DNA from: Eledone cirrhosa
Lineage: Eukaryota
Assembly (NCBI GenBank): GCA_964016885.1
Contig: OZ024742.1
Coordinates: 82,150,001-82,214,000, forward strand
Reading direction: 5' to 3'
DNA length: 64,000 nt
Shown here: positions 27,333 through 48,983 of the stretch, piece by piece
Numbering within the stretch: position 1 is the first letter of the stretch
Layout of the letters: each line of letters begins with the position of its first letter
Position numbers and translations under genes: made by a program
The notes under the pieces: model-generated
Databases searched by the model: none
Told to the model about the DNA's origin: nothing
The model's input: only the letters and a program-made list of their open reading frames with translations

Positions 27333-28167
27333 AAGGGTGCAAAACCTCATAGTAAGTCAATATTTCGCTACTGCTTGATGCAAGCGATCAAGTCGTTGAA
27401 GTGACGCACACGCAAAATTAGGTCACAAGTAAAAACTGGTTATTATAAACTTGCTGATCATGCCGCTAAAAATAGCAGCGAGATACAACGTTTTGTTCTC
27501 TACATAAGGAGAACAAATTATAAAAGGGTATGGATATTCTAACAGGCACTAAGTACCTACAGAAATATGCATGGTATTTATAATAGGTGTGGTTCGATGG
27601 TACTAATTTGAGATACCAGAACTATAAAAATGAGCGGAGCAAGCAATTATCAAACAATCAGTAGGTACCTAGTGCCTGTTGGAATATCCATACCCTTTTA
27701 TAATTTTTCTTCTTATGTAGAGAACAACACTTTGTATCGCAGTGCTATTTTTAGCGGCATGATCAGCAAGTTTATAATAACCGGCTTTTACTTCTGGCCT
27801 ATTTTTGCGTGTGCGTCACTTCAACGGGTTGACCGCATGCATCGTGCAGTAATCGAAATATTGACTTACTATGAGGTTTTGCACCCTATAGTATGGAAAT
27901 AGCTGTCTGAAGATCTAATTCTTTCCATTGGAAATTCTCTGGATGTCCAATCTTTTGATTAGTGAAGCCGTCGGTAACAACAATAGAACTTGTGAATATT
28001 TAAATCGTTTTTTTAATTTATTTAAAAGATTGTTTGATAATTGCTTGCTCCGCTTATTTTTATAGTTCTGGTATCTCAAATTATTACCATCGAACCACAA
28101 CTATTATAATCACCATGCATATTTCTGTAGGTACCTAGCGCCTGTTGGAATATCCATACCCTTTTAT
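27333..28167 (+). mobile_element. non-coding ~467 bp terminally redundant unit with inverted partial copy (retrozyme-like, family 1)
   Basis: 27661-27701 is repeated at 28128-28167. 27333-27560 is the reverse complement of 27661-27888, and 27520-27659 is the reverse complement of 28029-28167. Degenerate CTGAAGA...GAAA...GTC at 27907-27947. Confidence 0.6.
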
Positions 28168-28679
28168 ATATACACACACACACACACACACACACATATA
28201 TATATATATATATATATATATATATATATATATATATATATATATATATATATATATATATTTATATATATATATGTATATCTATATAAATGGAATAGAA
28301 TGAAACGAAATTTCATTTCTCACTCTTAGTACGTGGTTGCCTAAACACTCTTAGTGACGCGGTTGCCTAAACACTGTACGGCCTAAACTGAGCATTATGA
28401 TAAATGTTCAGTACGTGTATATGTATATATGTGTGCATGTATGTATATATATACATACTACTGTACTTCTGTATTCATATATGTACGTACGTATACATAC
28501 ATACTTACATTTAAGTAAGTGCCGTACTAACAGTGAGAAATGAAATGTCCTTTCATTCTATTCCATTTATCGTTTTAGGTGCGCCCGGCCGACTGAACTC
28601 ACTCGATATGCCAATTAGGCTGCTCATCCATTAATATGCATAATGAAAGTATATACTTTCAGAGGTTCAACCATCTGGT

Positions 28680-28736
28680 AGGAAGGTATACGATGCTGAC
28701 GATAGCTAATAAGCTTGAAACTAGTACATAGTTCCT
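28680..28736 (+). ncRNA. type I hammerhead ribozyme
   Basis: aggaa-ggtata-cgatg CTGACGA t-agct-aata-agct-t GAAA c-ta-GTA|catag-ttcct: intact core, 4-bp stem II, palindromic stem III ACTAGT, and stem I with a bulge and one mismatch. Confidence 0.85.
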
Positions 28737-29128
28737 GTGTCAGTGTTGAACAAAAAGGTGACGTGGTTGCCTAAACACTGTACGGCGTAATTCGGGCTGT
28801 TTGTTTGTTTACAAACAAACAAACCGAGCATTATAACAAATGTTCTTTAAACCGATACGTGCATATATATATATATATATGTGCATGTATGTATATATAT
28901 ATACATACTACTGTACGTCTGTATACATATATGTATGTACGTATACATACATACTTACATTTAAGTAAGTGCCGTATTAAGAGTGAGAAATGAAATGTCG
29001 TTTCATTCTATTCCATTTATCGTTTTCGGTGCGCCCGGGAGACTGAACTCACTCGATATGCAAATTAGGCTGCTCAGCCATTAATATACATAAGGAAAGT
29101 ATATACTTTCAGACGTTCAACCATCTGG

Positions 29129-29187
29129 CAGGAAGGTATACGATGCTGACGATAACTAATAAGCTTGAAACTAGTACATCGTTCCTG
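29129..29187 (+). ncRNA. type I hammerhead ribozyme
   Basis: caggaa-ggtata-cgatg CTGACGA taactaataagctt GAAA ctaGTA|catcg-ttcctg: perfect stem I, one mismatch in stem II. Confidence 0.85.
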
Positions 29188-29419
29188 TGTCAGTGTTGAA
29201 CAAAAAGGTCACGTGGTTGCCTAAACACTGTACGGCGTAATTCGGGCTTTTTATTTACAAGCAAACCGACCATTATAATAAATGTTTGGTAAACCGATAC
29301 GTGCATATATATATGTGTGCATGTATGTATATATATACATGCTACTGAACGTCTGTATACATATATGTATGTACTTATACATACATACATATTTACATAT
29401 ATATATATATATATTTATA

Positions 29420-45608: not shown

Positions 45609-46689
45609 ATTAAATCTCCACTACGGTAACTCTTCTACCTTTGTTTTGTTTTCATCTTTGTCTCTCTCAATTTTCACTTTCTCCTATTTCTCCTATCTAT
45701 CATTCACTTCCTACCTCGAGATTTTCCTCTGCATTGTTGTGGCTTTCTAAACTACGTATTTTATATATATATATGTTTTTATTTATTTTTAAGTGTATTT
45801 GGTGTATACATTCGAATGTGTGCGGTACAGGCGTTGCGTGTGTTCTGTATGTGCGTGTATGTGTGTGTGTTTTTTTTTACTTGTGTACGTGCTTGTATTT
45901 GCATACCCACGGGGTGTGTTTTTGCGTTTGCTTGTGTATGTACGTATATTGACGTGTGTATGTATATATTTAATTTCAATTACCTCTGTATTCTATTTAC
46001 TTTATTCTTAACTCTGAAGCCAAGAATCATTCGGTTTCCTAAATAGAATTTTAGTCTACGACTTCAGTTATATCATTTTTCGTGGCTTTGTCTTTGCGTG
46101 TAATTGTTTTCGTGCTCCACATAATGACGTATTCACTTCGTTTTTTCCGTTCATTGCCAGAGAACGTCTCCATGAACCACCTACGACTTCATTTATACCA
46201 TAAACCTGGTTTTGTCTCCGCGTCTCATTGTTTTCATTGCACCAAATAATGACGTATTATCTTCGTTTTTTTACTGTTCTTTGCCAGGGAACGTTTCTAT
46301 GAACCAATGTATCGTCTTCCTGTCTTGCTTCGATTGCAACGTTTCACTGCACCAAATAATGACGTATTATCTTCGTTTTTTACTGTTCTTTGCCAGCGAA
46401 CGTTTCCATGAACCAATGTATCGTCTCCCTGTCTTGCTTCGGTTGCAACGTTTTTTGAAATATTTACTTCTGCGATCACAGATTGACTTTATTGGTTTCA
46501 GAAGATCCCGTTAAGGGTGAAAGCAGCGATTGTTTGCTTAAACTTTAATCTGTTATATTAATAAATATTTGTTCTTCGGTTCGTATACATCTGATATATA
46601 TTTATCCTTATCGAGCCCTCTTTGCATTTTAGTCTTCAAATTTATTATTATTACTATATATATCTAGATATATATATATATATACAATG

Positions 46690-46950
46690 GATTTAGGCCA
46701 CTTTCTTGACCGGGGTATCACGTAATAATCTCTTCCTCCGCCTTTCTGAGATGTTCTCGCTTGCTACGAACGTGTCTAGAAAGCGCTCTTTCCATGAGGA
46801 GTTCCCTTGAGAAGCTGGTGTGCCTCACAACAATGCTACACCACTATGATGTAAAGTTGTTACAGACTGACCCACGAAACTGTACAGTCGGGATATTGAT
46901 GAAAAAATATGTATATATCTGAGTCTATTACTTCTTCTTACTTTATAATT
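46690..46950 (-). mobile_element. possible short PLE endonuclease C-terminal remnant
   Basis: A minus frame reads ..HLRKAEEEIIT*YPGQESGLN, resembling the R..E...I...GLN tail of GIY-YIG domains. Confidence 0.25.
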
Positions 46951-47055
46951 TGCTATATACATATATATATATATATATATATATATATATATATATATTT
47001 CGTTTCTGAATTTGTTTAGCAAGATTTTTTATCTGAAAACGTGTGTTGAAACCGA

Positions 47056-48325
47056 TATTGTTATACTTTGGGAGGGTCATGTTGCCAATAAGAAACACAC
47101 GCACCACATGTTCTAAATTCAATTTATTATAATAAATTTATAAATTTAGGAATTTATAAATTTCCGGTTGGTTGGTTGGTTCCACAACCAGATGTTTGTT
47201 TATATATTGTCAAAGTTCTTTCGTCACACATTATGTGACCTCTTCAGTGACTGGGGATTCTTTTCTTTGTTTTTGTGCCTCTCCTTTGTTCTGTCCTACG
47301 CCATCTTGTTTCTGTGTGTGTGTTGTGTGCTCTGTCTGCGCATGCGCCACATCCGTGTGTCTGTGTGTGTTTATATTCGTTTATTTATTTGTTTATTTAC
47401 ATGTCACTGGTTGGTTGTTTGTTATATGTGCGTGTGTGTTTTCATTTTGTCCTTAATTATAAGTTGTGATGTGCTGTTCCACTCATCTTTTCTATTTAAT
47501 TTTGGTTGTAATTCTTTTATGTTTATTGCCTCTGTGATTTGTCTAAACATTGCGTCTTTTCTTTGTGTAGATTCTATTTTTATTTCTATGTTCTCTATTT
47601 TAGCATGTTGGTAGAGTACAGATGATTCTTTAGTATTTTGAAGGTTTCACCAGTGTTCATTTATCCGTTCTCGTTCACTACGAGCTGTGTCACCTATGTA
47701 CACTATATTTTTATCTCTACATTGTCCTTCAGTACTTCTTATGCTATATACTACATTTCTAGTTTACAGTTAATATGGGGGCTTAATTTACAGGTTATAC
47801 ATTTCTTATCTATACAGGGAGGTCTTTGAAAAGGGTATGTCTTGCTAATAAGTGTCTTTATGGAGGTACCTGTTTTTTCTACTATCTTAATATTGAGCTT
47901 ATGTTGATCTAGGGCCCTTCTAAATTTGTAAGCTAATTCATCTTTAGGGGTTGTATCGATGAACATTACACTCTGGTATTTATTGCTATCATACCATGAG
48001 TTTATTCTATTAGCCTTATTACTAGTTCTTTCTATTATATTCCAAAATGTGCTCCTATACAAGGGGCAGGTCCCATTTGTGTCATTATTTACCATTTTTT
48101 CCCATTTGGTTCTGGCTCCTCTATAGACTCTGATTTTAGCTCTCTGATTTTAACCAGAGAACTGCATACAGTGGATGAAGTGTTGTATGTGTCTCTCTAG
48201 TTCTTCGGGGTTGCACATGCGGGACACGTTTCTCATCACCCGTACCAAACCCGTAATCAGTATGTTGATTTTGGTATGGTCCGAAATAGCTGAGTTTCGG
48301 TGGAAGTCATGGGTTTGGCATATAT
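47056..48325 (-). mobile_element. PLE 3' fragment (thumb + GIY-YIG + pLTR), second copy of the 36 kb family
   Basis: SAISDHTKINIL..RVMRNVS..HFIHCMQFSG. ORF 47751-48095 is near-identical to 36676-37173. Confidence 0.92.
47209..47252 (-). ncRNA. minimal type I hammerhead ribozyme in pLTR
   Basis: gtca CTGAAGA g-gtcaca-taatg-tgtgac GAAA g-aa-CTT|tgac. Confidence 0.75.
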
Positions 48326-48479
48326 ATATATGTATATAACCACTTCCACCTAACTCGTCCCTTGGACTGAGTGCTCTACAACTACGGATATTACCTTCCA
48401 TTGTTCCACCACTATATATATGTATAATAAGGAGTTGACGGACCCACCATATTTATCAATGCCAGTACCAGTTGTATGT

Positions 48480-48983
48480 ATTAGAATTGGTGCTCTGAAA
48501 TAGCGATGTATATATGGATGTGTATATAGTGTATTTGCTAATACACTGTATGCTTAATTAAAAGCATTTTAAAGACCTTACACATACTTCTTTTAGCGGG
48601 AGGTCTTCAATATGCTTTTAATTAAGCATACAATGTATTACCAAATATACTATATATATACATCCATATATATCGGTATTTGAGAGCACCAATTCTAATT
48701 TTCAATTTTGCTGCACCGACAACCGCTCTCTATAATCAGTTCCTGATTATTACTGGAATACTATAAGAATCGAACATTCATAATGTTCAACAAACAAAGG
48801 GAGTGCTAAGCTCCGAAGAATACCAATAGTATGAAACTGAGATATGTCAGCTAACTCCCTTTGTTTGTTGAGAAATAAAGTGACATAGTCACTACTTTAA
48901 AACAATAGCGTTAGATCTTCAAAATGCTTTTAATTAAGCATACAGTGTATTACCAAATACACTATTTATACATCCATATATAT
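48480..48983 (+). mobile_element. non-coding ~312 bp terminally redundant unit with fold-back arm (retrozyme-like, family 3)
   Basis: 48480-48578 is inverted against 48601-48700; 48604-48672 is repeated at 48916-48983; the unit contains a hammerhead. Confidence 0.7.
48787..48871 (+). ncRNA. type I hammerhead ribozyme with long stem I (U4C core variant)
   Basis: tcaacaaacaaagggagt-gcta-agct CCGAAGA atac-caata-gtat GAAA c-tgagatat-GTC|agct-a-actccctttgtttgttga. Confidence 0.75.

Follow-up and report, generated by a model that had tools for sequence, protein, structure and literature searches.

A stretch of 64,000 nucleotides from the genome of Eledone cirrhosa (contig OZ024742.1 of assembly GCA_964016885.1, positions 82,150,001 to 82,214,000 of the forward strand, here called the window and numbered from its first letter) has 34% GC and is rich in (TA)n and (CA)n runs and in mobile elements. 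Among these lie coding Penelope-like elements (PLEs) and three units that are separate families of non-coding tandem repeats with hammerhead motifs and head-to-head arms. The parts of the three units are as follows.

Three tandem units with inverted arms

27334..27659 (-): inverted arm of unit 1, 326 bp, covering monomer positions 330-466 and 1-189 in that order, 3′ end outward
27658-28164 (+): unit 1 forward part, period 466 bp, 1.09 monomers
28286..28333 (-): unit 2 inverted arm, 48 bp, matching two forward copies at 45/48 and 46/48
28321..28371 (+): unit 2 tandem duplication of 25/26 bp, straddling the inversion junction and read directly from the sequence
28334..29395, right end approximate (+): unit 2 forward part, with a 450-bp monomer present about 2.3 times, neighbouring copies 90-91% alike
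48480..48578 (-): unit 3 inverted arm, 99 bp, 89/101 (88%) to 48601-48699
48594..48983 (+): unit 3 forward part, 1.25 monomers of period 312 bp, with an 80-bp redundancy at 90%

An earlier note on this DNA had described three mutually unrelated units, each longer than one repeat, and they exist as described: all have a partial tandem structure (1.1-2.3 units each), and local alignment between units gives best scores of 19-36, against shuffled maxima of 26-36. Only the comparison of units 2 and 3 (score 36) lies above its own shuffled null, probably owing to the TA-rich tracts of both. With longest ATG frames of 47, 42 and 23 codons in units 1, 2 and 3, the units are non-coding. The note's formula of a monomer plus terminal redundancy holds for unit 3 and for unit 1 (41 bp, 27658-27698 repeated at 28124-28164, 95%) and misses unit 2 with its roughly 2.3 copies. 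The inverted partial copy that it had placed at the 5′ side of each unit is there in all three. Every arm is head-to-head with its forward part, on the 5′ side of the ribozyme strand with the 3′ ends outward, at an arm-to-forward identity of 88-96%.

In unit 1, the arm aligns to the forward part round the circular monomer over 305/335 positions (91%) and crosses the point at which the forward part ends. Both parts hold sequence order that is missing from the other; neither can therefore have been copied from the other alone, and two complementary DNAs (cDNAs) or a template jump are needed. Twin priming of the L1 type was considered for the arms and rejected, as the arm outer ends do not join the forward starts. 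Duplicated parts within the units differ by 5-8% substitutions (2.6% over 38 bp of the unit 1 redundancy), which resembles the older PLE pair of the window (8.6%) and is unlike its two young pairs (1.7% and 2.1%). The insertions seen here are thus old, and their ribozymes are partly decayed.

While the inner (5′) ends vary freely, the outer (3′) ends do not look random. They are spaced by 57 nt in unit 2, 26 nt in unit 3 and 189 nt round the circle in unit 1, with one insertion observed for each; the 57 and 26 nt of units 2 and 3 compare with a 38-nt tail in the PLE at 40.9 kb. A hand estimate of the chance of the 57- and 26-nt spacings is 0.26 x 0.17 = 0.04, a weak figure that leaves out unit 1, which does not fit. 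The outer ends of unit 1 sit on the monomer's only two ACCC-T-Y(0-3)-ATA sites. Random permutation points, as the earlier note had predicted, are accordingly not seen at the outer ends, which are either closely spaced (units 2 and 3) or both on one motif (unit 1). In addition, ACCC-Y-ATA, a motif defined post hoc, stands before a TA run at both unit 1 ends (27338 and 28158) and at 40896, the tail end of a PLE at 40.9 kb.

TA runs adjoin four of the six outer ends, a fifth end lies 10 nt from one and the left end of unit 3 has none. TA runs start 275 times in the window (both strands), and being so common they make TA context alone weak evidence. The outer 25 bp do not match in any of the three units, so that no terminal inverted repeat (TIR) is present, and no fixed-length target-site duplication is visible at the units beyond the TA letters.

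The left flank of unit 1 is formed by a different repeat.

27160..27333: repeat X, AC/TA-rich, a separate family, 80% to 19817-20038, with its second copy at about 19817-20040

Repeat X was considered as a 3′ tail of unit 1 and rejected, given that sequencing reads show it continuing as its own family; the reads leave the window sequence at 27332, and depth falls to 0-6 at 27335-27364. The outer end of the unit 1 arm (27334-27356) resembles the natural continuation of repeat X (19817-19838) over about 20 nt, which may reflect chance, recombination or homology-guided insertion.

Hammerhead motifs and the unit 1 family in public reads

27899..27984 (+): unit 1, type I hammerhead motif whose core lies at 27907 and whose stem II has U-U at its base and a long loop
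28690..28732 (+): unit 2, motif copy 1, core at 28696, palindromic ACUAGU stem III, one stem I mismatch
29140..29182 (+): unit 2, motif copy 2, core at 29146, perfect 6-bp stem I, one stem II mismatch
48787..48872 (+): unit 3, motif with core CCGAAGA at 48813 (U4 is C), predicted cut after 48848

The hammerhead-type motifs in the units are real, and cut sites are predicted in them, at 28726 and 29176 for the two copies of unit 2. They were scored with a custom type I hammerhead descriptor that was loosened after the motifs had been seen, and the resulting figures are generous. Unit 1 scores 22, copy 1 of unit 2 scores 23 and unit 3 scores 21, values reached by 0, 0 and 3 per 2000 monomer shuffles, respectively; the unit 2 copy at 29146 fails the scored descriptor on account of its stem II mismatch. 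Across the window, six sites score at least 20 compared with 0.09 per shuffled window (200 shuffles): two canonical motifs in PLE ends (36200 and 47247), one in each unit, and a further one at 20689. An Rfam scan of the window returned no family at gathering score. TA-rich microRNA models matched below the cut-off, as did Hammerhead_HH9 to unit 2 (a weak match of 12.8 bits, E 2.3), and units 1 and 3 had no Rfam hammerhead match.

All four motif copies in the units are imperfect. The two copies of unit 2 carry different single defects, and their palindromic stem III is of the dimer type (PMC4209133). Unit 1, with a predicted cut after 27976, is decayed at 27967 and 27980. In unit 3, stem I is lengthened by an 18-bp perfect helix and the motif folds with z = -6.6. 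The cut-to-cut monomer of unit 2 reaches z = -6.1, in part through a TA-rich palindrome. U-U at the base of stem II and palindromic stem III are both known from retrozyme and PLE hammerheads (PMC7229834, PMC4209133).

Public sequencing runs extend the picture for unit 1. The runs that match it are three small-share contig sets and three restriction-site-associated DNA sequencing (RAD-seq) runs from one organism, with no RNA run among them; 527 + 555 contigs and 5428 + 4255 reads from four of the six listed runs were mapped to the unit, mostly 90-95% alike to the window copy. Position 27967 is A in 159/164 and 63/66 reads of set X4 and in 127/129 and 42/42 of set X5, and position 27980 is G in 155/160 and 68/72 (X4) and in 128/134 and 39/42 (X5). 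These two letters complete the GAAA core and stem I, so the motif is canonical there in 93-100% per read set. The claim of a plus-strand hammerhead-type motif in each unit is thus borne out by scores above shuffles and, for unit 1, by a motif that is repaired in its family. In a commoner unit 1 subfamily, two positions of stem II are changed (3037/3303 and 3071/3189 plus-mate reads of X4); one contig per run has a 3′ strand that would pair with both changes, although no one record displayed the two strands together.

Besides the window's own joint between arm and forward part (monomer positions 330->429, antisense inner end to sense start), the reads contain five further antisense-sense joints with different breakpoints (47->249, 8->310, 429->287, 70->398 and 104->394), spread over all four mapped runs. 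All five are oriented head-to-head, on the same side as the arms in the window; for the opposite-strand joint the orientation was inferred from the read start at 27839 and a 38-letter side. The inverted arm is therefore recurrent in the unit 1 family. RAD reads begin at restriction sites, and no arm frequency can be derived from them.

Contigs of other copies link every part of the unit 1 monomer to the next, with no single record covering the whole monomer. Among the rows listed (40 of 318), 25 sites were tested, 9 in the arm and 16 in the forward part; 7 of the arm sites and 10 of the forward sites are private to one copy and 4 are shared, a pattern of mostly private and few shared sites that would be expected from one source and later decay. 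The loose read ends listed (24 of 407) include none long enough to reveal a reading frame and no reliable further 3′ end of the family. One at 27623, considered as a new 3′ end running into (TA)n, proved to be a TA expansion within the element, and another at 27541 offers only two informative letters. Summed contig depth at the unit 1 ribozyme is about 20,000, compared with 5-8 for single contigs, and was not used as a copy number. A metagenome scan with the unit 2 motif gave a sole match (L001), a chance 22-mer with no similarity beyond it.

Penelope-like elements and other repeats of the window

33622..35739: head-to-head pair of PLE fragments with GIY-YIG and a CxCx5C linker, Hydra-type, arms 1.7% apart; candidate helper class
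36000..37175 (-): 5′-truncated PLE copy with a Cx4CxxC linker and a canonical hammerhead at 36200, score 31
38109..46560: older head-to-head PLE pair with a Hydra-type linker; the element at 40.9-45.8 kb interrupts its right arm
40891..45763 (-): PLE with reverse transcriptase (RT) and C-terminal GIY-YIG (Pfam RVT_1 E 1e-11, GIY-YIG E 1e-4)
47059..48325 (-): second copy of the 36000-37175 PLE family, 87-88% to it and also supported by tblastn, with a hammerhead at 47247; a gap of 150 bp separates its end from unit 3 on the right

Inverted matches, Pfam and translation agree with the earlier claim that three coding PLEs share head-to-head inverted arms, again with the 3′ ends outward. In the older pair, 38109-38820 matches 45777-46560 and 40721-40766, and 38940-39409 matches 40160-40626. 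The 40.9-kb element has an inverted 5′-truncated copy at 44269-45763 and a 38-nt tail at its left end only. Two of the three coding PLEs have the CxCx5C linker, which marks the (TA)n-inserting Hydra clade (PMC8557442). For the PLE frame at 36.7-37.2 kb, the sole longer homologue among 49 candidates was an Octopus vulgaris protein (57% identity).

Hammerhead-like sequence is also found at the ends of these elements. The 3′ region of the 40.9-kb PLE carries a motif with a shortened core at 45580-45610 (+) and 41090-41115 (-). That of the 33.6-kb pair holds a 113-bp tandem repeat with a CTGATGA core (35349-35578 and 33782-34011), in which the descriptor finds no complete motif. Directly right of unit 2, 29420-30500 (-) appears to be the decayed 3′ end of a PLE and contains a degenerate hammerhead-like motif at about 29505-29535. 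Unit 3 was considered as a chimera with the PLE at 47.1-48.3 kb, a notion unsupported in view of 140 unrelated bp between them. Beside a decayed minus-strand PLE RT (800-2300), an inverted pair with 91% identity (2793-3161 and 4155-4521, within 2757-4521) lies in a low-complexity frame.

A fourth non-coding hammerhead unit occupies 32503-33326 (-) and 37174-37303 (+), with a 231-bp partial repeat. Its motif is the strongest in the window (core 32683, score 43) and has a stem II insert of about 95 nt and a palindromic stem III. The 130-bp inverted piece of this unit is joined head-to-head to the PLE at 36000-37175 with a 2-nt overlap, which makes the join either a two-RNA chimera or a nested insertion into one head-to-head pair. 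At 7486-10621 (-), a 998-bp tandem array of about 3.1 copies has no arm and carries one hammerhead-like motif per copy (7784, 8781 and 9779) with U-U at the base of stem II, a long loop II and a palindromic stem III; it is a candidate for a further retrozyme. The motif at 20681-20769 (+), with U-U at the base of stem II and a score of 22, lies in a single-copy stretch between TA runs.

The remaining repeats are of other kinds. A segmentally duplicated block (4757-7463, 10778-13855 and 14119-19170) holds a 147-bp hairpin element, a 1261-bp tandem and a TIR-bounded repeat of about 500 bp that is flanked on the left by an inverted partial copy, and no convincing hammerhead motif was found in the repeats of this block. 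At 24269-26012 (-) there is a broken Helitron-type Pif1 helicase (Pfam PIF1 E 6e-52), with related hairpins at 26954-27015 and 50568-50677. Right of unit 3, 49084-49900 (+) is a long interspersed element (LINE) fragment, presumably RTE-like, and a repeat at 60.3-60.5 kb is one that we take to resemble an octopus short interspersed element (SINE).

Probable mobilisation by Penelope-like elements and the nature of the template

The footprint that the units share with the neighbouring PLEs, the recurrent arms and the lack of an outer TIR together make mobilisation by PLEs likely. PLE insertions are characterised by an inverted 5′-truncated copy, partial tandems, a 30-40 bp tail and a (TA)n bias (PMC8557442), and it is likely, by analogy, that a PLE RT with its GIY-YIG nuclease copied the units into the genome, as is thought for retrozymes without long terminal repeats (non-LTR retrozymes). 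The helper/satellite relationship proposed in the earlier note is upheld to this extent, while none of the local PLEs could be matched as the helper.

Copies of more than one unit need a tandem or a circular template. On balance we favour the view that the units are non-autonomous elements mobilised by PLEs without an obligatory circle. In such a scheme, a tandem donor would be transcribed into an RNA longer than one unit, and the PLE protein would cut both strands of AT-rich or (TA)n DNA. Reverse transcription would begin at an internal position of the RNA, chosen from a small set of specific sites downstream of the ribozyme, with each target end priming its own cDNA; the two cDNAs would stop at variable points and be joined 5′ end to 5′ end, leaving a long forward copy that runs past one unit and a shorter inverted arm. 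The template would most simply be the uncut tandem transcript, although a circle made by the ribozyme would leave the same footprint. The biochemistry of a PLE from the anole provides a precedent: the purified protein cleaves and extends both strands at AT-rich DNA, and in vitro it starts internally at two adjacent sites and works on uncut RNA, with no need for ribozyme cleavage (PMC11167929). No circle is required to explain copies of more than one unit if initiation takes place within a linear tandem transcript, and the spacing of the outer ends fits internal initiation by a PLE RT on such RNA, be it linear or circular.

The closest known elements are the non-LTR retrozymes (PMC7229834; 10.64898/2026.07.22.740005), likewise non-coding tandem units of a few hundred bp with low GC, a type I hammerhead and species-specific sequence that co-occur with PLEs; axolotl HHR_Amex2 also has U-U at the base of stem II (PMC7229834). 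The units described here also have inverted arms at the 5′ side, paired ends resembling a tail and flanking (TA)n runs, none of which the main texts of these two papers describe. The criterion of a ribozyme in at least two consecutive units is approached by unit 2 only, with one mismatch per copy, and non-LTR retrozymes are known with circular RNA, whereas the units described here were studied as DNA. No description of inverted arms on retrozymes was found in the literature searched, including the main texts, as distinct from the supplements, of PMC7229834 and 10.64898/2026.07.22.740005, nor was a cephalopod retrozyme found in that literature, which took in few subscription papers.

Canonical PLEs with an endonuclease (Neptune, Nematis, Hydra and Penelope/Poseidon) share with the units the partial tandems, the inverted 5′-truncated copy at the 5′ end and a hammerhead upstream of the 3′ end, and perhaps also the optional tail and the (TA)n bias (PMC8557442). 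The units differ from them in having no RT or GIY-YIG frame, a whole repeat unit of 312-466 bp and no similarity to the PLE ends of the window. The both-strand cleavage and extension and the two-site internal initiation of Poseidon PAc from Anolis carolinensis would explain arms and paired ends; however, PAc primes without homology at sites 30-40 nt apart (PMC11167929), whereas a distance of 189 nt separates the two ends of unit 1, both of which fall on an ACCC-Y-AUA with an overlap into the TA target. MRC1 and other non-autonomous Chlamys elements likewise depend on PLEs and are non-coding, with pseudo-long terminal repeats (pLTRs) and head-to-tail insertions, but they belong to green algae, mostly have no hammerheads and have a 3′ end like that of the autonomous partner (PMC8557442).

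Several observations count against the favoured view. The 189-nt spacing of the unit 1 ends is unlike a tail, and several unit ends overlap the target by TA letters, unlike the homology-free priming of the anole PLE. The other half of repeat X was not found in the window beyond units 1 and 2; taken together with the resemblance between the arm end and the continuation of X, this means that the left junction of unit 1 may be secondary or homology-guided. Two ribozyme copies are present in unit 2 alone, units 1 and 3 having one each in 1.09 and 1.25 units; the U4C change in the core of unit 3 has no second copy for comparison, and motif folding energy is not distinctive for units 1 and 2 (z 0.2 to 0.6). 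None of the units is similar to the five PLE 3′ regions of the window (scores 21-36 compared with null maxima of 25-38). Outside copies were examined for unit 1 only, and support for each read joint is thin (one contig per run or 3-10 reads), one joint having a side below 30 letters. Four of the five joints are formally skips that could be deletions at this locus in other individuals, although two different samples each carry the same two joints plus the fifth, which favours separate loci.

An alternative for the template in line with the earlier note, that the ribozymes excise monomers which are ligated to circles and that the PLE RT rolls round them to give copies of more than one unit, appears rather unlikely. 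In its favour, the forward part of each unit is longer than one monomer and runs across a predicted cut site, and in other copies of unit 1 the reads lead from each stretch of the monomer into the following one. As circles, units 2 and 3 have strong folds (z -6.3 and -5.9, with three controls at -1.6 to +1.9), and coral, mussel and axolotl are rich in retrozyme circles (PMC7229834). On the other hand, the outer ends are not in random phase (with the reservations on the chance estimate given above), unit 1 folds no better than shuffles (z -1.2) and the anole PLE in vitro uses mainly uncut RNA (PMC11167929). In a bolder version, which we consider slightly more doubtful, this genome would hold a swarm of mutually independent circles of ribozyme RNA (five or six families or more within 64 kb) living as parasites of several PLE clades; both strands would be primed by a dimer of PLE protein from two RNAs, possibly different ones, of which the head-to-head join between the coding PLE at 36.0-37.2 kb and a piece of the fourth unit may be an instance, with the start chosen by the ACCC-Y-AUA common to unit 1 and the tail of the 40.9-kb PLE. 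If true, this start signal would name the 40.9-kb PLE as the helper.

The units could also be ordinary 5′-truncated ends of autonomous PLEs that have tandem ribozyme repeats in their 3′ region and their coding parts elsewhere in the genome. We hold this to be about as improbable as the rolling of an RT round excised circles, even though PLEs leave an identical footprint, the 33.6-kb pair has its 113-bp tandem repeat in just such a region and 21/57 Xenopus retrozyme families match PLE ends (10.64898/2026.07.22.740005): unit 2 is a non-coding tandem of 1.06 kb with no coding remnant, unit 1 reads pass between monomer parts while the loose ends listed are too short for a frame, and no unit matches a PLE 3′ region of the window. 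An origin of the arms at the DNA level, through replication fold-back or foldback transposition as in miniature inverted-repeat transposable elements (MITEs), on pre-existing satellites and with no role for PLEs, is very improbable. The fragility of TA runs speaks for it, as do several perfect hairpins in the window and one TIR-bounded repeat that has no hammerhead motif, but the outer ends of the units have no TIR, the arms are always 5′ of the ribozyme strand with the 3′ ends outward (three of three units and five read joints), and a small sample suggests an excess of head-to-head over tail-to-tail junctions.

Overall, the element class and the model are known. Circles were proposed in 2014 as templates for reverse transcription of more than one unit in PLEs (PMC4209133), retrozymes with PLE helpers and rolling reverse transcription were proposed in 2020 (PMC7229834), so that the helper/satellite idea was already in print, and a preprint of 2026 makes the case that retrozymes derive from PLEs and are non-autonomous (10.64898/2026.07.22.740005). 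What is added here is an insertion footprint that supports the PLE-helper hypothesis, an incremental gain. The question of which enzyme mobilises animal retrozymes is still debated on the grounds of co-occurrence and of similarity between ends; a footprint of PLE type on hammerhead repeats that do not code for protein makes the genomic case for the PLE-helper model more direct, and the junctions of the units offer a cheap test of circular versus linear templates.

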